A DNA stretch of 64,000 bases from Owenia fusiformis (taxonomy: Eukaryota): positions 24,056,001 through 24,120,000 of the forward strand of contig CAIIXF020000001.1 in assembly GCA_903813345.2 (NCBI GenBank). The letters run 5' to 3'. The translations under genes and the position numbers were made by a program. Shown in pieces: positions 13,815-28,176 of this stretch. How positions within the stretch are numbered: position 1 is the first letter of the stretch; the number at the start of each line of letters is the position of its first letter. The notes beneath the pieces were generated by a model, which did not search any database, was not told the DNA's origin, and saw only the letters and a program-made list of their open reading frames with translations.

Positions 13815-14041
13815 GCTTCAGACACTTCAAGAAAGCCTTAGTGATATTATAGTAATTTAGGAATTTTATCTAGGAATTTAACAAGTAGCTTACATTTATA
13901 TTATTTGATGTTATTTATTATAAATATGTATTTTGATAAATCATACAATAAATCATAAATTCATTTAGTGATTTATGTAGTTGTTCAAAATTTGATTCTG
14001 CCATGAAGTCAATTCCAGGTGACTGTCTAGTATGTCTAGTG

Positions 14042-14617
14042 CTATTTGTAGTACACATGACCGAACTTTCTGAACAATGGCACCCATATGCTGTAAAATG
14101 CCAATGGTGCCACGAGCCATACAGCTTGTGGTATCACAGTATATGACACACCTCCTACAGTTAAATAGGCAGGGTTCCAAGGCAGAACTTGGTACTCCCA
14201 GATGACTCCATTACACATGCTCTCCACTATGAACGAAGAAACCTGTCCCCATATAAGCATCACTAGAAACTCCTTCGCGGAATATTCCAAGAACAACGGT
14301 CTCTTCTGGAGCATCATATAGCATAGTAGTACCCCTATCAAGAAAATCCCACCGTCCCATAAAGAATGAAGAATCTTTGTATACCATCCTGCTATTGGGT
14401 TCACAAAATCAGTGGAATCTTTCAGGAAATCATCTCCCAATATCTTCCAAGTGAGTTCCCAGGTGCATCCTATCAAACTCCCGGTGAAATGTCCCAAGAG
14501 TACGGCTTTGCTTAATTTGCCTTTTAAGTACAAGAGAGTGATGGACAAGGTCCACAATGTTGGGATGACCACATCTGCTGTGATCATAAACTGCTCCTTG
14601 ACATTCGGAGGTCTCAT
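14042..14617 (-). CDS. Intronless 191-aa multipass membrane protein of unknown function
   Basis: Uninterrupted ATG-to-TAG ORF with about five hydrophobic segments and polar motifs (GCTWE, LHSLWDGG, WGQ...VE, PWNP, PQAVW); AATAAA about 125 nt downstream of the stop. Confidence 0.8.
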   Translation of the reverse strand: MRPPNVKEQFMITADVVIPTLWTLSITLLYLKGKLSKAVLLGHFTGSLIGCTWELTWKILGDDFLKDSTDFVNPIAGWYTKILHSLWDGGIFLIGVLLCYMMLQKRPLFLEYSAKEFLVMLIWGQVSSFIVESMCNGVIWEYQVLPWNPAYLTVGGVSYTVIPQAVWLVAPLAFYSIWVPLFRKFGHVYYK

Positions 14618-16378
14618 TTTCAGTTTGACGTCTCCAAATTCTGCACAACTTGAATGCCTTTTCCGATTTTGTTACTCTAGTCTTTGGACTTTAAGTAAAA
14701 TCATCTTGTAAATGATTAACTCATCAAGTAGTATATTCAAATGACATATTGATATGTATTTTAGTACATAACCATAAACAGACACTATCCCCTCAAGAAT
14801 TGAACATCCATTCGCGTTGGTGTTGTTGATTCATCATAATTTACTGCATGTGTTGTGTAGGCTTTCAGACTACTTTCATTTTTTTTGTTTATTCACACCC
14901 AAGGTGTACAATATCTAAATAATAGCACTAAATCACATAAGTCACCTCCCCTTGATACAAAACCAAAATACATATTAGGATATAGAAAGAAAATTACCTG
15001 TGTTCCAAAAATCCGATTCACCATAAACAATATCCCAAACAATAGAAAATGCAGAAATTATAAAAGTTACATATTATTTAACAGCGCCAATGATGTATTT
15101 AATCTGTGGAGAAAGTGGACTTTTGTCCCCCGATGATGCTCTATCAGGCGTTATCACTTTCTTATAGATTCAATGCCCTTACTAGAGTCAATAGTGGACT
15201 GTATTGTCTTATTACCATGGGTCTAGTACTTTAATTATCGTTATTTTGTGTTCTCTCTTTATTTGAAGATCTGAGACCTTAACAACATACTTAATTACAG
15301 AGCACTTTGAATAGTATATTTTACTTCTTGAAAATGAAAGATTCGCCTTTATTATATACTACAGACTTTTGTACTTAGGGCACAACACACAAGAACAACT
15401 TTAACTGATATTAGACACGACAAAACAATGACTCCGTCCGTGTAATATCTTAGTGATAATAGACACTCTCTCTTATCTCTTCCCTGTGGTATTAACCTGA
15501 CTGAGGCCCAGAGCCCAGTTAATATGGTGTCGATGAAGCCCTTTTTTAAAAAATCAAAATCGAAACTGTTGGAAATGGTAGGTATTAACATAGAACGATA
15601 TGGTTTTTAGTTATAAATTATATTTATCTACAATATATTATTTTTATTCAAATTGTACAAAAATGTGAAAAATTTGGCCTAGAAGTTTGCATCTACAGTC
15701 TCATACTATACAGATTAGTCATGTGCAACGTTCATTTTATTTTTGCGACAAGCTTACCAAAATTACATAATCTCTATGTGGTAAACAGGATCATTACATC
15801 AAATTACAGTAAAGTAATGAAGGTACGATAAAATATCCGTCCACCCCTCTCTTATGAACACCTTTCAAACTTTATCAAAATTTCTTTCAGACTCATTAAA
15901 CGTATCAACATCAGCCATGTATCTATGTACAAAATGTAGAGGTGTATGTGGAATCACAAAGGGGATATTAGAACGCTATTGGGGAAGCAGAAACATCTAT
16001 ACACTGTAGTACTTGGTTAACTATAATTTCCTCCTATTCCGAGTCTGGTGTGCAGTTGTTTTTGGTAATTTGCTTATGTCCATGAATGTACATTTATCTG
16101 TATCCATACGGACCAGAATTACAATACGTAAACCCTACTGTATTTCAAATCATTGCAAATCTTGTATTAATCCAATTATGAATGCATTTTCATACTTTAT
16201 TTACAGTTTGTACATCCAGAACCATGTTATGAACAGTATCCCATCCTTGTGTTTATTCTTCCGATCTTTACTTTCGAGTCACGTGTGCAGAGACCTACAT
16301 TACTAGTGTTGGTCTAGTCTATATTTCCGAGTCTCTATCCCTTATGGACGTCTTGGTGTCCTATGATTCTCAGTTGAG

Positions 16379-19300
16379 TTACACCCATGAAGTGGTCAAA
16401 ACGAACAGAACTGACATAATTGACATGAGATATCCAGTGAATGAGAGAGTTGATGTTCCACTGGTTCTATCTGGAAAATAAAATACAAATGATATTATTA
16501 AGTAGAGCATAAAGTTGGAGGATATCATGCATCTATCTGATGACTATCTGACGAAGTTGCACGATGTTTATACACAAGATGAACAAAACGCTCGATTAGC
16601 ATGTGGCTGTGACTCGTACGGGACGTGATACCCAAACTACATACAAATATGACATCCTGAGTATATTACCTATTTCTAAAGTGATGTTGTGTGTGGCTTC
16701 ATATCTGTTGTTTTTTACATACAAGTTGTAGGTTCTGTAGTGACTGTTGGCGAGATCCCTTATCTCAAGATATACATTAACCACGTTACTGTCCTGGTCA
16801 GACTGAAAAACATTTCAGAAATAAATTTCAATTTTAATTGTTTTAAAAAACGAAAAAGTAACGTGCGTTTAGAAAGGAAGGTATGAAATTATTATGGCAA
16901 ATGAAGAGGCGGACATGTTTCCACATAAAGAATCCTGCCACAAGACTGGAAGCTTAGTTAAAATTTGACAAGAGATATGAGAAAACACGTTTGATGATAT
17001 TTTCATGAGATCTAACAGCATATTTTGATCAATTTGAGGTTGTTTGTTTTTGTGGAATCTGTGAAAAATCAGACTAAGAAACATTCAATTTTGCCACATG
17101 AGACTAGAGGTCCTTTCTCACGGAACTCCGCTTTTTAAAATCCTACAGCAGTTGATGAAACAGTTAAATAAGTCCAATGTGGCAAGACGTATGGTCAACG
17201 AATGACCAGGAGAATCACTATGAGATAACCTTTACCCCACAATGTATCACCTTGTTTCTTACCCTCATCATCTGTGCCCTATACTCCCTCATCTCCTGAT
17301 TGATCTTCGGGTTCAGAGTCTGCATGTTCTCATTCTCCGTCCATTGCCACTGAACAATTGTCTCATCATTGATCAGATCTGGATTGGCAGCAACAGGGCA
17401 TGATATCATCGCCTCCCTATTACCAGAAAGTGGGTGCTGGATCTGGCTACAGTTGAACTTTGGGGCAACTGAAACAACAATAGTATATATACAGAATATC
17501 ACATCATTTTGAGTGATATCATTTTTATCGCCGAGTTGATATCAAATATCAACACGAGTGAGCGAAGCGAATGAGTGTTGATATTTGATATCTACGAGGC
17601 GATAAAATTATATCACGAGAAATTATGTGATATTGGGTTTATCCCATGATTACAACCACCTTGTGATGTTCTGATCCAATTTCCAGGACATCGGCAGACA
17701 ATATAGATATCGTAGATATCAAATATCAACACTCATTCGCTTCGCTCACTCGTGTTGATATTTGATATCAACTCGGCGATAAAAATGATATCACTCAAAA
17801 TGATGTGATATTCTGTATATAACATACTGTACTTCCTTCTGACATAGGCAAAGATTTATTGTGTTATCAATTAATAATGTATGCTCACAAATAACGTCGA
17901 ACGTGATTGATGCAGATTTGGTTGGCAGATTGGGGACACTGGAATCACACCTGAGCTCCTTCCTGTTGTGGTAATACTCGATCGTCTCAATGTTGCTCAT
18001 CCAGGTGTGATGCAGAATGGTCACCTGTAAACACAAATATGCATATTACCTTGGTCACCCGTAAACACAAATATGCATATTACCTTGGTTACCTTTGTGT
18101 CGGACGTAAGAAAGCATTCTCAAAATTCATTTCGTTCGTTGCGTACCTTCACTACCTAGGCACAGGAGGTACGGATGGTACTGGACGAAAGGCTCGGAGA
18201 CTGGTAAGAAAGGAGATCTGAGTATCAGTACGGGCAAAGGGAAAAGTAGCCGTGAGCTTCTATATTGAGCTTAATATTTTTCCCTTGACCTATGAGTATA
18301 AGAATGTTAAAATAGTCTATGCTTAAAATACGAGGGGTGATCAATAAGTAATCGACGCTTTTTTACACAGATGCTTTTTATAGACCAATCCCTTTGATTT
18401 TCTTCCCAGTGATACATCATTTTTTACATGTCATTTTTTAAAGATTTGCACTTACCAGCCCATCGTTATTGTATCGAGGGACCGGCTGCTGCGACCTTCT
18501 GGACCAAGATTCGGTTAAGTTCAGGTAGTTGTTTGCATTTTCAATCAGGAAGATCTTCATATCTGGTGCTGGATTAGACCCATTAGAGTGGCACTCTAGA
18601 TTCACGCGGTCATATTCATTCACTTTAATCACACTCCCAGATGAAGCATTATTGACATTATTGAAGTAAACTTCTTTTGGTGAAACTGAAAAAATAACAC
18701 ACTATGTATTTGTAACATGGTGATCAAACGATGACAAGACCAATGTTTTTATTATTGATCTGTATTTATGTATTTTACATTGCTCTGAGCCCATTCTATA
18801 TTTTATTGTATGTTAGAGCCTGAGCCGTGTTAAACGTGGTACGCTTACCCATGACGTCTAGTGGGACAGTAACGGGGCTAACCTCACCAGGGACGCTACA
18901 ACCAATCCCACCTCCACCGTCCTCACCCTGTACGCCTACAATTTAAGTTGAGACAGTTGAAACACTCATTATGTCTTGTGCTGGAGTTTTAGACAGTATT
19001 TATTTAAAATTGAATATTTCATAGAATAACTTTGAATCATATTTCATATTCATGCACTAAGCTAACGTTTTGAAGTTTTTTCACTTAAACAAGCTGCTGT
19101 TGTAAGCCTTGGGCTTCTTATTCATAAATGTGCTTTAGTCTCAAAAAAGATACTTCAGATGTCATTTTACACCTGATTCTTGTATGGCTTTACTAAACAG
19201 ACCAAGGCTATTTTCCTATTATATCTTTTAATATGTCTGAAAATTATAAAAGATTCCCACCCCCTTGCATTCTACCTGTTAAAGTGGCGGTACCGATTCC

Positions 19301-21527
19301 CATCTTCAAGGAACCCCAACCTGTTAGTGATGGTACCAATTCCAACCTTCCTTGAACCTCTACCTATCATAGTGATGGTATCAATTCCCACCTTCCTTGA
19401 ACCTCTACCTATCATAGTGATGGTACCAATTCCCACCTTCCTTGAACCTCTACCTGTCATAGTGATGGTACAGATTCCCACCTTCCTTGAATCTTTACCT
19501 GTCATAATGATGGTACCGATTCCCACCTTACTTAAACATCTACCTGTCACAGTGATGATACCAATTCCCACCTTCCTTAAACTTCTACCTGCCAAAGTGA
19601 TGGTACCGATTCCCACCTTCCTTGAACCTCTACCTGTCATAATGATGGTACCGATTCCCACCTTACTTAAACATCTACCTGTCACAGTGATGATACCAAT
19701 TCCCACCTTCCTTGAACCTCTACCTGTCATAGTGATGGTACAGATTCACATCGTCAAGCATTCTTACCTATTAAGGTGCTAATCCAAAAGCACCAATCTT
19801 GTATACATACATTATGTATACATACCCTGCGGCGCAGAGTCTAGTTATAAACTAGTTTATGAATTACTAACCTTATTTTAAGAAGCTAATTGATCGAATG
19901 CAAAGGGTTTGTACACACAGTATGCATGTCCTACATCCCTACCTATTATGGTTATGGAACCAATTTACCACGTTCTGGTATCCCTGACAATGGTACCAAG
20001 TGGTAGTGGTAGTGCCAATACTCAATTCCTACATTCTAGTATTCATACCTGTTATGGTAATAGTACCGATATCCAGGTTATTTCCTTCCTCTCGAAAACT
20101 GACAGAATATCGATTTGTGGCACCAAATGGTGGTACAATAATCCTTGTATCTAAGCTGATAGGATAGGGGTCGCCTGTATCTCCATCTACCGTCTTGATA
20201 ACATGGGGGATTTTAAACTTTGGCAGGCCTCCGACGAAAGTACATGTGAAGACAACAGTGTCGCCCTCTTTAACCGGTGCTGTGGGGCCCGTCACGGTGA
20301 GGGTGACCTGCGAGGATACATCTGCAACAGTGGAACATTATTATTAAAGATAGTCTTGTATCAAGCTCCTGCCCCCCCCCCATATAACCTCAGATATGAC
20401 TTACTTGGTGGTAATGTATAGTGATTGGGATGGTAGAAGACTTGATGCAAAACCACAATAAAGACAGTAAAAAGAGTTAAAAGAGTAAAATATAGATGAT
20501 ACTGATAGCACACGCAAACTGACAAAAATGGTGGTTTTTGAAGGCATAAAACACAAGGAAACAATACAAATACGTATGTATGTATACTTCGTCTCGTTCC
20601 AATACGGAATTTCTCGAGCAGAACATATCCTACATTGCACTTCAAATCATTCAATAACTTAAAGTTTATTCAGTAAGTGAAGTGTTAAGACAATGAAACG
20701 ACCTTTTTTATTTTTTCAATGACATTCATTAAGATACCATTTCATATTTGATCACGATTCTCATCAATTTAAAAAATGAAATTCAGTTGCTAGAGTAATT
20801 ACACCTCAGCCTCGATGGACTAATATAAAAATAGTGATTCAACAGGTTAATACGGTATTTATATTTATTAAGATGAATGATAAATGAGTAAACGACATTA
20901 GCAATGGCACAAATAAAGAATGTTTAAGTTACACAAGTGAGTGTTTAACATTGTAGTGTGGTGACAAACAAAATTTGGGTGTTGGGTTCCTCTGTGACCT
21001 TAAATCATCTTTTTATCTCCTTTAACAGCTATTTGGACTTGAATGTGCCATAAATAAAAGTCAGAAGCAAGGTTCCACTTATCTCCTTGTATATCGTATA
21101 ATATTCCCAAATACATGTTAAAAATCCAAATTCAACACAAAGCACAACACCTAACAAGCAATAATTACAAACGAGTGATGCAAAGCCTATTACATGATAA
21201 TGTACTGAAATGTAATGAAACATAAATCCACAACTATAGTACAGTCAAATAGAAAAATGTGTTGAAGCAAAGAGGTAGAGATACATTTATGTTTTAATAG
21301 TTCTGATCACGTCACCAACCGGTACTCGTCCATGATTCAAAATATAAATATGTTTTTTATAATCATAACAGCTACAAATAAAAGAATGTGCTCTGAATCT
21401 TAGCAAGAATTTAATATCACGGCAAATTAGAACAAAAAAGTCTTTCTATAATATTCTATGAAAGTGATAAAATATACTTACATGTAATAGAAAAAGCCAA
21501 TAACGTCAGGTAGTGTACGCGCGCCAT
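16379..21527 (-). CDS. Ig-superfamily cell-surface protein, paralog A (signal + 3 Ig-like domains + probable GPI signal, ~400 aa, 8 exons)
   Basis: Exons 21482-21527, 20049-20321, 18849-18935, 18456-18685, 17889-18024, 17263-17468, 16670-16802, 16379-16470 join in frame. Ig motifs EGDTVVFTC...EDGGGGIGC and VNLECHSNGSNPAP...HNRKELRC; hydrophobic C-terminus SGTSTLSFTGYLMSIMSVLFVLTTSWV* with no cytoplasmic tail. Confidence 0.85.
17486..17821. mobile_element. MITE with ~110-bp near-perfect TIRs, each arm internally palindromic
   Basis: TATATACAGAATATCACATCATTTTGAGTG...CGAGTGAGCGAAGCGAATGAG...TCTACGA is inverted at about 17710-17821; TA-rich flanks; absent from the equivalent intron of paralog B. 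Confidence 0.85.
18021..18095. repeat. 34-bp tandem duplication of a 3' splice site
   Basis: TCACCTGTAAACACAAATATGCATATTACCTTGG followed by TCACCCGTAAACACAAATATGCATATTACCTTGG. Confidence 0.85.
19272..19770. repeat. 45-bp minisatellite, about 11 copies, in intron 2 of Ig paralog A
   Basis: Consensus CCTGTCATAGTGATGGTACCAATTCCCACCTTCCTTGAACCTCTA; accounts for the repetitive ORFs 19180..19782 (+) and 19272..19730 (-). Confidence 0.95.
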
Positions 21528-22031
21528 TTTGGTTTACAAGCGGACTTTGGTCATAAAATTGATAAGAGAAAATTCCTTATTATTTACCATCCATTAATAT
21601 ATTTAATAGCTAATATAATATATTGAATGAACAATTGATGGATGCACCCCAAAGATAGGCTAAAGAGAGGTAGAGGGGGATAAAGTACCCCTAAAATGTG
21701 ATGTCAGGACCAGCAAGTTTTTAATTTGTAACAACCATGGCATTAATTCTTTTAATATTTAACTTTTCGTGGAGTGTTTACCTATATCCCTATGATTCTT
21801 GAATATTTGAATCAATAGTGCTAGTTATATATTTATTGAATACTTGATGTTCAAATATTACTATCATTTACCATATCAACATTCACAGGATACTAGTATG
21901 TGGTGTTGTTTATTCTGAGTAACGTTTCGTATCCATTGATTATTACTCTTTGTTATCAAGAACACAAAATCTAGCTGAAATAAACAAGGGTATCTTTAGA
22001 AAATAACTCTTAAAATATAATTGATCCAAGG

Positions 22032-22443
22032 ATATCCTAAATAATATTCATCGTTGTTTAGGGTAAAAGTTAAAATTGATTTTAGCCGATGCCATAGTGA
22101 TGGTACCAATTCCAACCTTCCTTGAACCTCTACCTGTCATAGTGATGGTACCAATTTCCACCTTCCTTGATCTTCTACCTGTCACAGCGATGAAAGGTAG
22201 ATCCTAACATATCCTTAATAATATTCATCGTTGTTTAGGGTAAAAGTTAAAATTGATTTTAGCCGATGCCATAGTGATGGTACCAATTCCAACCTTCCTT
22301 GAACCTCTACCTGTCATAGTGATGGTACCAATTTCCACCTTCCTTGATCTTCTACCTGTCAAAGCGATGAAAGGTAGATCCTAACATATCCTTAATAATA
22401 TTCATCGTTGTTTAGGGTGAAAGTTGAAATGATTTTAGCCGAT
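22032..22443. repeat. X-Y-X-Y-X tandem repeat (period about 177 bp); Y carries copies of the 45-bp intronic minisatellite
   Basis: X = ATATCCTWAATAATATTCATCGTTGTTTAGGGTAAAAGTTAAAATTGATTTTAGCCGAT (three copies); Y = GCCATAGTGATGGTACCAATTCCAACCTTCCTTGAACCTCTACCTGTC... (two copies). Confidence 0.9.
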
Positions 22444-22476
22444 AAAACAATAAAAACGTTTGGAATGGAAGGTGAT

Positions 22477-25400
22477 TTAATTAAGATGACTGGCGACCAA
22501 TGTTAGCACTAATGACGTTATTATAAAGTCTATGTATGTTCTACTGCATCGTCTGCTTGGTGCTGTATTGGTGGACCCTGGAACATAAAATACGCACTGA
22601 TCAACAATTTGACAAGATGCATGAAGATATTGTCATGTTGGAAGTATTCAGATAATCTAAAGACTAGCCAGCCAATCGTTTGATGACACAAGCAACACAT
22701 GGAATGGAACTATGCTTATAATGTTAAACGAGGGATAGAGGTCCATGATGTTTGACATTCTTGTTGGACCAATTTAAAGGGGCAATAAAGACTGTAGAGA
22801 AAATAGGAAAGTTTTTTCATTTTTCTGAGCTATCAAGGCAACATTTGGTTTAACATCTTCTTTGACATACCTGTTTTCTTAAAATGTATGGATAAATTAT
22901 CAATTTCAGCATTAAGAAGTGTAAATTCAGTTCAAAGCTTCACAAAGGGGACTTCCACTTTTATAATTTTAAGATCCACCATGTTTCAAGAGGAATATCA
23001 GCTAAAATAATGTTTATCTAGGGGGTTTCTTTGTAGATAATAAAAATAGATGTTAGTCTTGATGAAATATCCAAACTTAAATATATTTTGACACTGGTCC
23101 ATGATCGTTGAATGACCCCTCTGCACTAATTATTGCACCTTTAAAACAAGAACAAAATCTTTTTCCGCGAAACCCACTTTACAACCTACCTTGTGCCAGT
23201 GTTATGTTATATGTGGCCTGTGTGTCACTGGTGCTTATATAAATGTTATATTGTCTGTAGTGGCTGCTATCCAACGGAGTGATCTCCAACTCAACCTTCA
23301 CAATATTGTCATCTGCACTTGACTAAACGCCGAGACAAAACAAGCAAATAATTCAGTTGTTGGTAAATCAAGCTTCTACATCAATGAAACATTATAGAGA
23401 CATTCTACAAGCAAAATCCATGAATTAAGCAATTAAATTGTTCCCTATTCTCTCCCAAACACAAAATTCCATTTGGAAATAGACAAATTGGATGGTATAC
23501 ATGTACATATAATTCACGAACTTGTTCCATGCAGTGAGTTTAGTTCTAAGGTGGAGTTTTAAGGAAGGATCGAACAATCCACAAGTGATATACTCATGAT
23601 AATCCCATAAGCTTTGACATTGCGATTGACTTTAATAGTGTTTGAAACCTTTTCATATATGGCAAAACAGTTTATATGACAAAACAGATTTCAACTACAG
23701 GCAGCATGCCGATTTTGACATCCTTCCAGTTTCTAGATGGATGTTCCAAATGTGTACATTATCCCTTTGAATGATGTAATGCCCAAACATGTTTTAACTC
23801 ACTCTCATCATCTGTGCCCTATACTCTCCATTCATCTGGTTGATCTTTGGGTTCAGTGTCTGCATGTTCTCGTTCTCCGTCCATTGCCACTGAACAATCG
23901 TCTCATCATTGATCAGATCTGGATTGGCAGCCACGTCGCATGATATCCTCGCTTCTCTATTGCCAGGCTCTGGGTATTGTACTCTGCTACAGTTAAACTT
24001 GGGAGCAACTGAAAACACAAAAGGCCCTGTTGTTTTTTTGGAGTAGGCTACCATGGATTTTTACATATTCTATTGAACTAGTGGTCTCTGATGCTCTTTG
24101 CTCAAATTCATCAATAATCAATTTGGGCAATTTTACAACAAGCTTATATTACGCAGATGGTGTCCTATATCTGAATGCATTCGTTACTCACATAAAACAT
24201 CAATTGTGATCTGTGATGATTTCGTAGGAAGACCAGGCACAGTCGCTTCACATCTCAAGTTCTTTTTGTTGTGTAAATATTCTATCTTCTCAAGGTTGTG
24301 CAGCCATACATGATGCATGATCTTCACCTGCAGGGATCAATATGAAATGCATGAAGGGGATGAACAAATTATTTGCGACAACTTATAATATTAACATCTA
24401 ATAATCACGCGGTCCTAACTTGAAAATCAAGGATTGCCTGGTATCAATAGATTGCTTCCTAGTCAACTCGTACCCAAGACAACTCGTACCCAAGACAACT
24501 CGTACCAAGATTATTTTCAGTATTATGGGTGCATATTAGGGAAAAACTTGAGTCTGTAATGCTTTCATGTTATAATGTGAATCAAATAAGCCTCAATATT
24601 CATATATTTTTTTGAATTTAGAAGACATTTTTTCTCACTGGATCAGTAAAGCATTTTTAAATAAAAGAAGTGCTTGAAGCGCTTGTTCTCAACATTATTT
24701 TGTCAAACATATATATAAATAAATATAATTACAACATTAGATCTGACACTTGTTCCAAACACTCATAAACATACAATATTTTGAAAAATGATTATGAATA
24801 TGTGGAATAAACATATGTCTCTTCACTCGAACATCCTGAATCTGTGACCAATATAAAATAATAGTCAATATAAATTGACACTCAGTTCAAAATGTCACAA
24901 AATTAAATCAATATCTTCCAAAAATTCTTCTTCAAACTTTAAACTATTCTGAACAGTATGTTACAATTATAATATGTATATCTATTCACATTCCCAGTCC
25001 AACGCTTGATTCAAAACAAAATATATACTTGGGTACGAGTTGTCTTGGGTACGACTTGTCTTGGGTACGAGTTGACCAGTTACCAATAGATTCACTACCG
25101 GGAGACGTTTAGATATAGTTGGATGGGAAAATGAAATCGGTGAGAGTGATAAGGAAAGTGAGATCAAAATACACTGCAAACACCAAACTGAAACTAACAG
25201 GCAAACTCATGACTCGCTATTTTTCACTCTCGATTGACGACTCATTCACCGTAGCGGCCGAATGGTTGCAAAGATAGGCAAACACGATAATTATTACTGG
25301 TACAGTTTTACTCTGGAGGTTTTCAAAACGGATAATAGACCAGTACCTACCAGTCCATCATTATTATCTATAGGAACGGGATAAGTCGATGATCTTGCCC

Positions 25401-28176
25401 AGGTTTCTGTGAGATTAACATTATTGTTATTTCTACCCATAAGGTAGACCTTCAACTCAGGGGCGGGGTTAGAACCGTTTGAATGGCACTCAAGATTGAC
25501 CCTATCGTTTTCTTTCACGTGCAGGACAGAGCCATCCGTCATGTTGCTGAAATAAACTTGTTTTGGCCCACCTGAAATGTAAATATGAACATATAAATAC
25601 AGTGCAATGAGATTAGGAGAAATCCAACAGATTTCATGGAAGTTGGTACATTGTCTGTGTTGGTTTCCAAATTTTGCACGAGATACGCAACGTTGAGTGT
25701 TAATTTTAGGAAACAACGCCTGAAAGGAATGGTCATTCCACAATACATTTCACACATTGCAAGATATTTTCTACCATGTCACTTAAAAGATATGCAATCA
25801 CTAAAAGAACGTCCTTTCAATGAACCTTTTTGCAACAGTCAAGTTGGCAAAGTATCAATTTCAATCTGTAGAGTCAAGTTGTCAGCCTGGCAACGACATA
25901 AGGAATGTCCTTGGATGCGGTGATTGGTTATATAATGCACCATAGTTATATGAAATATTGTGTTCGGATTGGCTGGAATCGAACACACCTTGCCTAGTGT
26001 GTGAATACTTTTTAAGGATCATGACTTACAACCTCGTGTTTATGTGAATGGTTGTAAATTGCCATGGTCGGTTTCATGTTGTTACTTTTACACTACATTT
26101 ATCCTAAAAAGGTCTTACCAAGCACCTCCAAAGCTGTCACACTGAATGGTTCATTGGGTAAGGAGGGAACGGAGCAACCAATACTACCTCCTCCATCCTC
26201 CGCTTTTACGTTTGTAATTGTGATAGTGCCGACGTCTCCTTTGCCTTCGACCTCCTCGAATTGAATACTATATCTACCAGTCTCTTCGAACGGAGAATTT
26301 ACTTTCTGTCCAGCATCTCCACTTATTGTTTTAAAATAGGGTTCTGATACGGAATCGACATATTTGATGACATGTGGTGGTTGGAACTTCGGGAGAGCTG
26401 GGCTTATAGTACATGTAAATGTAACTGTTTCGCCTTCCAATACTGGTCCGGTTGGGCCTTCTACATCAATAGTAGTTTGACACAGTGCACCTAAAACAAC
26501 GATCTTTGTAATAATTCAAATTCGTCTAGGTCGCTCGTTTGGGCCAGATAGCAAGGCGGGTATGGTAGAAAGTTCCCTTTAACTAAAATTACATCTGTTT
26601 TAGTGGTTCAATTCTCATATCACGACACCCTTATCTATCTAATAGTTATGCAAATTAAAATATGTCCAGTAAAAGAAAATGTTATCTGTCCAATACAAGA
26701 AAAGATATTTCATTTTTTGTGATTTTATAACATGGGGCCTATGGGGAATCTCCCCGAACTCGAAGTAACATTTTCAAAAATATTAAATTTTCAAAGTTGA
26801 TAAACAATTTTCGAAACAATATTTCTAGATGTACTTTTATATGTAGAATTTTGAATATCTAATGACGTAAATCATGATTATTTCTACTCGCATCTAGTCA
26901 ATTGTTATGACAACATTATCGCGAGAAAATGGACAAAAAGATCCAATTTCGGGAGATATTTATGTAAGTGTTATAAAGTAAAGGAAAGAATGTGTACAGT
27001 GATAGCTGCCAATGTGTCTCTTACAATCAAGACCTGAAAACTGATATATTAGAATTGAAAGGGAGACGTTTACTTTTTAAAAAGCTAGGAAAGAACCAAT
27101 TCTTAACATGTAGAACCATTTTCTTCTATCATTCTCATAATTTCCATTCTAACGTTGATTTGGTGAAATAACAAACACAAACCTCGCTACATATTTCTTT
27201 TGACAACACAAAAATGTAAGTGCTTTACGATTTAAAAAAGTGTCCAAATTACTTTTATAATGATGTTGAAATTAAATTATGTAAATCCAAAGTGACCCTG
27301 CTTGGGAGCAATTGTAAGTCTGTTATTGTATAAATATGTTACTGTATTGTATTGTTGTGTCTAATACCCAATAATTAGAAGGTTTAACCTGTTAACAAAT
27401 AGATTGACATTGAAATTGACAATGCGGTTTGTCACTTGAATCTTACATCACTGTACAAAGATCAATGGGTGTAAAGGGATCGTAAATAGCGTCAATAGTA
27501 TACTAGTATCAATGTTTGTTTCAGGAAGTTAAATTAATCTTGAATTTCGTCGGCAACCGTAGAATGAAAAAGTGTACTATTTAGGTAGATTTTATGTCTT
27601 TTATTCATACTAGTAATGCTAGTCTTGATTTGATGGCCATTATTATGGGTAACTTAAAATTCAAATGGGAGCCCATGGTATGATAGTAGTTTTCTTTAAA
27701 TCATATGTAGCAAAGGCATGGAAGGGTTTAGTAATCCTTCAAGGTAGTGATAGTTGGGGAAGTTAGCACTTGGCGTCATGTTGTTCCTCCTTGGATTATC
27801 TTTAAGTATTGCACAAAATCTCTCAAACTATCCCAAATTATATCAAAATGTGGTTATTATCCATCATTCCTTGAAATGATCAGTCAAAAGATGTAAGAAG
27901 GCAGAACAATTATTTTTGGTGAAATTTAGGTCCAACGAAGTTAGACTGTCAATCTGTAAATTGGCTAGATTTCCATCATGCGTCATACACCCTAATCAAG
28001 AGAGATATGATATTACTATTTATCTAGATTTCAATTGAGATCTAAAAACAAAGTAACTGTCCACATGCCATTTATACAAATATATATAATTATGTTATAC
28101 AATAAAATATATGATAAATCACAATACCTGTCACACACAGTAATGCCCCTAGAAAATGAAATATCCAATCCGCCAT
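22477..28176 (-). CDS. Ig-superfamily cell-surface protein, paralog B (signal + 3 Ig-like domains + probable GPI signal, 7 exons)
   Basis: Exons 28128-28176 (MADWIFHFLGALLCVT), 26119-26490, 25351-25571, 24192-24327, 23803-24008, 23190-23322, 22477-22577 join in frame. Exon lengths 136, 206 and 133 nt match paralog A; C-terminus ...YIDFIITSLVLTLVASHLN*. Confidence 0.85.
22778..23140. mobile_element. MITE with TTAA target site, Kolobok/piggyBac-like
   Basis: TTAA|AGGGGCAATA ... TATTGCACCT|TTAA. Confidence 0.55.
24454..25084. mobile_element. MITE with 15-bp subterminal tandem repeats and 8-bp TSD
   Basis: (CAACTCGTACCCAAGA-like) x3 at the left end, inverted x3 at the right end; AATAGATT duplicated at 24446-24453 and 25085-25092. 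Confidence 0.8.

Follow-up and report, generated by a model that had tools for sequence, protein, structure and literature searches.

A 45-bp minisatellite resembling its own exon boundary in a paralog-specific intron of an immunoglobulin-like gene of Owenia fusiformis

Two tandem genes that differ by one intron

The DNA analysed here, called the window below, is a stretch of 64,000 nucleotides (nt) from Owenia fusiformis (GenBank assembly GCA_903813345.2, contig CAIIXF020000001.1, positions 24,056,001 to 24,120,000 of the forward strand); all coordinates are positions within it. The window contains two tandem genes on the minus strand, the paralogs A and B, whose products are immunoglobulin (Ig)-like. 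One intron of A holds an array of a 45-bp repeat whose first half is copied from the exon end on which the intron borders. We lean towards reading this array as a minisatellite that spread from an exon-intron boundary into an intron that was already there, whereas a first-pass annotation of the locus had proposed that the intron itself arose by duplication of an exonic segment. The gene models were rebuilt until their translations were identical to the public protein P0002 (400 amino acids), which is the product of A, and to the protein P0001 (405 amino acids), which is the product of B. The parts of the two genes that matter for the argument are as follows.

21527-21482, 20321-20049, 18935-18849, 18685-18456, 18024-17889, 17468-17263, 16802-16670, 16470-16379, minus strand: paralog A, 8 exons (rebuilt model)
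28176-28128, 26490-26119, 25571-25351, 24327-24192, 24008-23803, 23322-23190, 22577-22477, minus strand: paralog B, 7 exons (rebuilt model)
20049..20321, minus strand: exon 2 of A, first part of Ig-like domain 1, with a phase-1 end at the donor GTATGA (rebuilt model)
18849..18935, minus strand: exon 3 of A, remainder of Ig-like domain 1; the second half of the repeat unit has been proposed to come from its first 35 nt
26119..26490, minus strand: exon 2 of B, the entire Ig-like domain 1 in a single exon (matches P0001)
18936..20048, minus strand: A-specific intron, 1113 bp, GT..AG, phase 1, inside a Gly codon; without a counterpart in B

Six introns are common to A and B in both position and phase (1, 1, 0, 1, 0, 1), and A has one more, 20048-18936. 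That A carries a 1113-bp phase-1 intron where B has none had been noticed in the first-pass annotation, and the rebuilt models agree: the intron runs from GT to AG, P0002 joins 20049 to 18935, which is exactly the splice that removes it, and the single exon of B at 26490-26119 matches P0001. The 20049|18935 splice rests on public annotation; it is absent among the 15 of 39 RNA joints listed, and read depth there is too low to judge. At this splice the message of A reads ACAG|GC, not AG|GT. In both genes one phase-0 intron interrupts Ig domain 2 and another interrupts Ig domain 3, and the extra intron is unlike these in place and phase. The two proteins are identical at 230 of 395 aligned residues, and their genes have reached saturation at synonymous sites (pS 0.72); judged by these sequence distances, A and B are old duplicates.

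Anatomy of the extra intron and its array

Read from donor to acceptor, the intron can be divided into four parts, which are listed here together with the exon end that precedes them and with a second place at which the 45-bp unit was found.

20049..20070, minus strand: last 22 nt of exon 2, source of the first half of the unit (18/22 to the array consensus)
19926..20048, minus strand: second half of copy 0 (20048-20020) and about two decayed units, continuous with the exon end (score 22 against the unit dimer)
19747..19925, minus strand: spacer of 179 nt without significant likeness to the unit (P 0.97 for 19925-19800, P 0.86 for 19799-19747)
19252..19746, minus strand: main 45-bp minisatellite, 11 units (Tandem Repeats Finder and unit extraction)
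18936..19251, minus strand: AT-rich unique 3' part of the intron, 316 nt, including the acceptor (P 0.79 against the unit)
22023..22443, minus strand: second locus of the 45-bp unit, with 2 intact and further decayed units in a young higher-order repeat of 177 bp with about 2.4 copies

Tandem Repeats Finder reports the array at 19252-19747 with a period of 45, 11.1 copies and 84% matches, in line with the roughly 11 copies counted earlier, and the consensus of the extracted units is the unit that had been given then. Units 1 and 4 of the array are identical, as are units 0 and 6 (higher-order repeats). At the boundary between its two halves every one of the 11 units carries AG|GT, as CAG|GT in 9 and as TAG|GT in 2. 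Most of these pseudo-donors read CAG|GTAGAG and differ at +4 to +6 from the authentic donor, CAG|GTATGA.

The first 22 nt of the unit match the exon end at 20070-20049 in 18 of 22 positions, the count already made in the first-pass annotation. No other ungapped match outside the arrays, on either strand of the window, is as good, and only 5 places reach at least 15/22. Ranked next are the homologous site of B, 26233-26212, and a decayed copy within the intron, 19964-19943, each with 16/22. By this comparison the first half of the unit derives, beyond reasonable doubt, from the end of exon 2 of A. Since it matches the site in A (18/22) better than the one in B (16/22), the array seems to be younger than the split between A and B.

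The array is in register with the exon, and the exon end together with the next 29 nt behaves as copy 0 of the repeat. Decayed copies had been suspected at about 19940-20030; they are indeed present, as 20048-19926 aligns to a dimer of the unit with a local score of 22, a value reached in 0 of 1000 shuffles. The stretch 19799-19747 was also considered as a decayed unit and was rejected (P 0.86). Altogether 495 nt of the intron bear no relation to the unit, namely the 316 nt before the acceptor and the 179 nt between the decayed copies and the array. When the frame of exon 2 is read on into the intron, a stop follows after 6 codons, and use of a pseudo-donor further downstream would thus yield a broken message.

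A second locus and the copy number of the unit

Within the window the 45-bp unit occurs at only two loci. The second, 22023-22443, starts about 35 nt past the stop codon of B and lies about 500 bp upstream of the ATG of A; it contains a 245-nt self-match at 96.7% identity. Its intact units carry a GGTTGGA variant that is otherwise found in unit 8 of the array.

Abundance outside the window was assessed with the sequencing run X2, whose depth is even, at about 14-27, over introns and intergenic DNA, so that it behaves as genomic DNA. The bins over both arrays have depths of 32, 22 and 25, as against 4,900-69,000 in transposon-like bins (copies at least 95% alike), and the unique 3' part of the intron (18936-19251) is at about single-copy depth. 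The array is probably not a dispersed high-copy repeat. One contig of run X2 (18744-19354) reaches into the array from its 3' side and stops short of spanning it.

High-copy dispersed elements with a depth in the thousands in run X2 are located at 17269-18669, 20538-21004, 22774-23144, 24274-25207 and 26142-27075. Many RNA reads fit these elements partly, with loose ends at 18116, 18145, 18328, 22774, 23144, 26627 and 26895. Joints between opposite strands at 20586/20619-20634 suggest a hairpin or an inverted repeat.

Boundary minisatellite or birth of an intron

With modest confidence, we regard the repeat as a boundary-spanning minisatellite of the 'mirage' type in an already existing intron. 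A 45-bp segment across the 5' boundary of the intron, made up of 22 nt of exon end and about 23 nt of intron start, would have been duplicated tandemly into the intron. The copies adjoining the exon would then have decayed, the array of 11 units seen today would go back to a later variant that expanded and became homogenised, and part of this array would have been copied to the second site 2.3 kb upstream. The authentic donor, which is the most upstream one, would be used and the mRNA would be unchanged. Both this order of events and the sole use of the upstream donor are what we infer from the arrangement of the copies. What is expected of a boundary minisatellite is found here: the unit consists of exon end and intron start, the real boundary is the first element of the series, and pseudo splice sites are repeated. 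The parts of the intron that lie away from the boundary are free of the unit (P 0.79 over 316 nt and P 0.97 over 126 nt), which is what an older intron should look like. Read in this way, the array is a record of an unstable boundary and not of the birth of the intron.

The first-pass annotation had come to a different view, which we consider unlikely. In an ancestor of A that lacked the intron, a coding segment of about 51 nt between two ATYGGT sites would have been duplicated in tandem, the GT in the upstream copy and a later AG would have become splice sites, the duplicate would have expanded, and unrelated sequence would have been inserted afterwards. Both readings predict that the first half of the unit comes from the exon end and that the boundary is copy 0, so that it is the origin of the second half and the acceptor side which discriminate between them. 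If the intron was born in this way, the second half should come from the start of the downstream exon, and the copy that is expected at the acceptor should have been erased by later insertions and decay, a combination that we hold to be doubtful.

Several observations weigh against a boundary minisatellite, and the likeness of the second half to exon 3 comes first among them. A local alignment to the start of exon 3 has 16 matches, 4 mismatches and 1 gap (16/21 columns), as had been counted in the first-pass annotation, and a hand count that includes ATYGGT gives 24 matched bases with 3 gaps. We compared the consensus second half plus the next ATYGGT with the first 35 nt of exon 3 under five scoring schemes. 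Dinucleotide shuffles of the exon gave a global P of 0.004-0.02, and with the unit shuffled instead the global P was 0.003-0.023; the local P was 0.003-0.106. Not one of the 2253 35-nt windows in the coding sequences of A and B matches the second half as well as exon 3 does. This likeness is stronger than a boundary minisatellite predicts. The start of exon 3 also resembles the start of the intron at a borderline level (29 nt against 33 nt, global P 0.053). Moreover, all 4 differences between the first half of the unit and the exon end are transitions at third codon positions (P 0.0048, hypergeometric; by our own estimate P becomes about 0.04 when synonymous change in the exon is allowed for), and a purely non-coding history does not predict differences confined to third positions. 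The exon frame on the minus strand is open through the array (19272-19745, 157 codons), and the length of the unit is a multiple of 3. It is also roughly a 1-in-7 coincidence that, of seven introns, the repeat occupies the very one that has no counterpart in B. Finally, no RNA read confirms the choice of donor, since in three RNA runs over 14000-28000 the depth is <1 in all bins across the Ig1 exons of A and B.

An array that codes for protein now or formerly did so was considered and rejected: the 28 differences among the units are distributed over the codon positions as 9:12:7, without codon bias, and an open frame through the array is expected by chance in about 1 of 3 cases (a hand estimate from the consensus and the 28 differences). 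A search with the minus-strand translation of the array (157 amino acids) against proteins of 86-275 amino acids in a collection of 5.8 billion proteins returned 2 candidates, none of them significant. The array is also free of stops on the plus strand (19177-19782, 201 codons).

The resemblance to exon 3 is modest in its significance, with P from about 0.004 to 0.06 over the different null models, and when the ATYGGT anchor is held fixed the global P is only 0.12. The first 29 nt of the intron (20048-20020) are a competing source of the second half, with a global P of 0.001 in a test in which exon 3 gave P 0.006; the second half also resembles the decayed copy c2 (P 0.011). The start of the intron (c0) in turn resembles c2 (P<0.001) and the units u10 and u9 at the edge of the array (P 0.004 and 0.010). 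Compared directly over 40 nt, the starts of the intron and of exon 3 are not alike (P 0.59). Older copies compared with exon 3 gave P 0.15-0.64 (c2 0.24, c3 0.46, u10 0.15). The young consensus alone matches exon 3 with P 0.0075-0.015, a profile of old and young copies with P 0.08-0.125, and the old copies alone with P 0.21-0.36. A likeness that fades as older copies join argues against true ancestry, which should not fade. A test of the repeat against the spliced exons by shuffling, as suggested in the first-pass annotation, has a divided outcome: the second half does beat composition-matched shuffles (P 0.004-0.02), but the match weakens when the older copies are included (P 0.08-0.125). The homologous stretch of B is not similar to the second half (P 0.40).

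On the acceptor side, the last 40 nt of the intron contain no copy of the upstream exon end (P 0.95) or of the first half of the unit (P 0.97), and the 316 nt before the acceptor contain no trace of the unit (P 0.79). The duplication model requires the end of the upstream exon to recur at the acceptor, and its absence there weighs against birth of the intron.

Taken with the likeness of exon 3 to the second half and to the intron start, birth by duplication gains from the absence of this one intron from B while the six others are common, from a position and phase unlike those of the introns within Ig domains 2 and 3, and from the ATYGGT motif (Ile-Gly), which occurs at both ends of the proposed source (20070-20065 and 18906-18901) as had been pointed out before. 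It also fits with an array that seems to postdate the split between A and B (18/22 against 16/22; pS 0.72), and Ebner et al. have proposed boundary-derived repeats in newly gained introns (PMC3087553). However, the mRNA junction is AG|GC, so that the source would have had no AGGT and an added loss of 2 nt or a mutation is needed; 316 nt of unique single-copy sequence stand before the acceptor and 179 nt more lie within the intron; and it is the young homogenised consensus that resembles exon 3, as the older copies do not (P 0.22-0.64) and the combined profile is weaker. The second half and exon 3 are both G-rich, their alignment requires 3-4 indels, and the hypothesis was framed after the data had been seen. 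What stood of the original proposal, birth by duplication of a segment with AG|GT, is the source in the exon end, the restriction to A and a second half that exceeds composition-matched shuffles; the AG|GC junction and the missing copy at the acceptor speak against it. Its fallback, according to which only the donor site was duplicated, is the better reading.

Two further explanations were considered. The 45-bp unit might be a dispersed repeat or a satellite carried by a transposon, with the likeness to the exon due to chance or capture. The unit is found in a non-genic place as well (22023-22443, within the 177-bp higher-order repeat), and high-copy elements are abundant in the window, but we consider this very unlikely given the depth of 22-32 over the arrays in run X2 (baseline 14-27, thousands over transposon-like bins, for copies at least 95% alike), the absence of a match to the array translation among predicted proteins of 86-275 amino acids, and a first half whose top matches are the exon end of A and the homologous site of B, with the array in the register of the exon. 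Alternatively, a fragment of spliced A cDNA, or of an intronless paralogue, could have been inserted with its exon-exon junction into a pre-existing intron and then expanded. Such an insertion would account for the likeness to both exons without the birth of an intron. It does not predict that the genomic boundary is itself a copy of the unit with decayed copies continuing from the exon, the units read AG|GT and the message AG|GC, and the second half is unlike the homologous stretch of B; we regard this explanation as highly improbable.

Comparison with known systems

'Mirage' minisatellites have been described in amphioxus, in Adh3 and in the globin genes BflGb6 and BflGb9 (PMC3087553). Like the array of A, they are tandem minisatellite-like units that span an exon-intron boundary, and most of them keep the AG/GT signals (PMC3087553). 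Likeness among their units is 81-100%, the central copies being homogenised and those at the edges divergent, as in the A array (PMC3087553). Normal splicing is said to be undisturbed, and the authors tie such repeats to new intron positions (PMC3087553). The A array differs in being from an annelid and in its unit of 45 bp, the amphioxus units having 10-72 bp and 150-160 bp (PMC3087553); it is also unlike the amphioxus mirages described there in that its founder copies are separated from the main array by 179 nt and that a daughter locus lies outside the gene.

A similar situation is found in intron 7 (IVS7) of the human F7 gene, where a 37-bp minisatellite begins with a monomer that lies across the boundary and splicing uses the most upstream donor alone (PMC1557585); cases in IFI6/6-16, CBS, LMNB2 and PDGF are listed beside it (PMC1557585). 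In F7, as in the array of A, a series of pseudo-donors comes after the authentic donor (PMC1557585). However, the F7 unit takes 4 nt from the exon and the A unit 22 nt, and the pseudo-sites of F7 are identical to the true site (PMC1557585), whereas those of A differ from theirs (GTAGAG against GTATGA) and have decayed copies in between.

Among introns for which a gain by duplication of AGGT has been put forward, that of vertebrate ATP2A1 is comparable to A, as it is a paralogue-specific phase-1 intron in a Gly codon and the corresponding exon of the sister genes ATP2A2/3 is uninterrupted (PMC3265369). The intron of A contains duplicated exon sequence, as in the AGGT duplication of the Rogers model (ATP2A1, potato RdRp). 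Potato RdRp is an example that a segment duplicated in this way can extend across an existing boundary (PMC4974935). Compared with these cases as far as the sources describe them, A has no AGGT at the mRNA junction and no copy of the exon end at the acceptor, and half of its intron is unique. In the literature on intron gain by tandem duplication, intronic minisatellites, multiple donors and Owenia introns, we found no description of the A/B locus.

Few routes by which animals acquire new spliceosomal introns have been documented, and it is rarer still for a sequence to betray its origin. The locus offers a clean pair for such studies: the tandem paralogues are old, six introns are common to both, and the one extra intron contains a repeat made from the exon boundary of that intron. 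Should the intron prove to be a gain, the duplication and the 'mirage' models of intron birth could be tested here directly, and if the birth reading were true this would be a rare animal case of a new intron that still shows its source, linking 'mirage' minisatellites to intron gain. If it is not a gain, boundary-spanning minisatellites are extended from amphioxus and human genes to an annelid. Independently of this, the array provides a natural row of 11 pseudo-donors for the study of 5' splice-site choice outside vertebrates.

Relatives of the two genes and neighbouring features

The proteins of A and B have a signal peptide, three weak Ig-like domains and a hydrophobic tail. Pfam searches with single exons and with whole proteins gave weak Ig matches only, mostly under the curated cut-offs; the best solved structural relative is SYG-2 (E 1.7e-7). 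HMMER returned 56 proteins at E<=0.001 from 1.84 billion representative proteins, the nearest of which are about 28% identical to A/B. Ten of these relatives were examined: one is a protein of the same species on another scaffold, and the rest are on short contigs without gene structure. Conversely, none of 58 proteins compared with the window matched it outside A and B. Queries with the Ig1 exons against longer proteins each matched their own protein only, which is weak evidence, as the search even missed the sister paralog. A and B (16379-28176) form an isolated pair, their other relatives being only about 28% identical.

Downstream of the last exon of A and outside the gene, the minus strand contains a stop-free frame of 209 codons (14042-14671), which includes hydrophobic stretches and matches nothing in Pfam. 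At the upstream edge of exon 5 of A, mostly in the preceding intron, there is a further tandem repeat (18018-18093) with a 34-bp unit, 2.2 copies and 95% matches.

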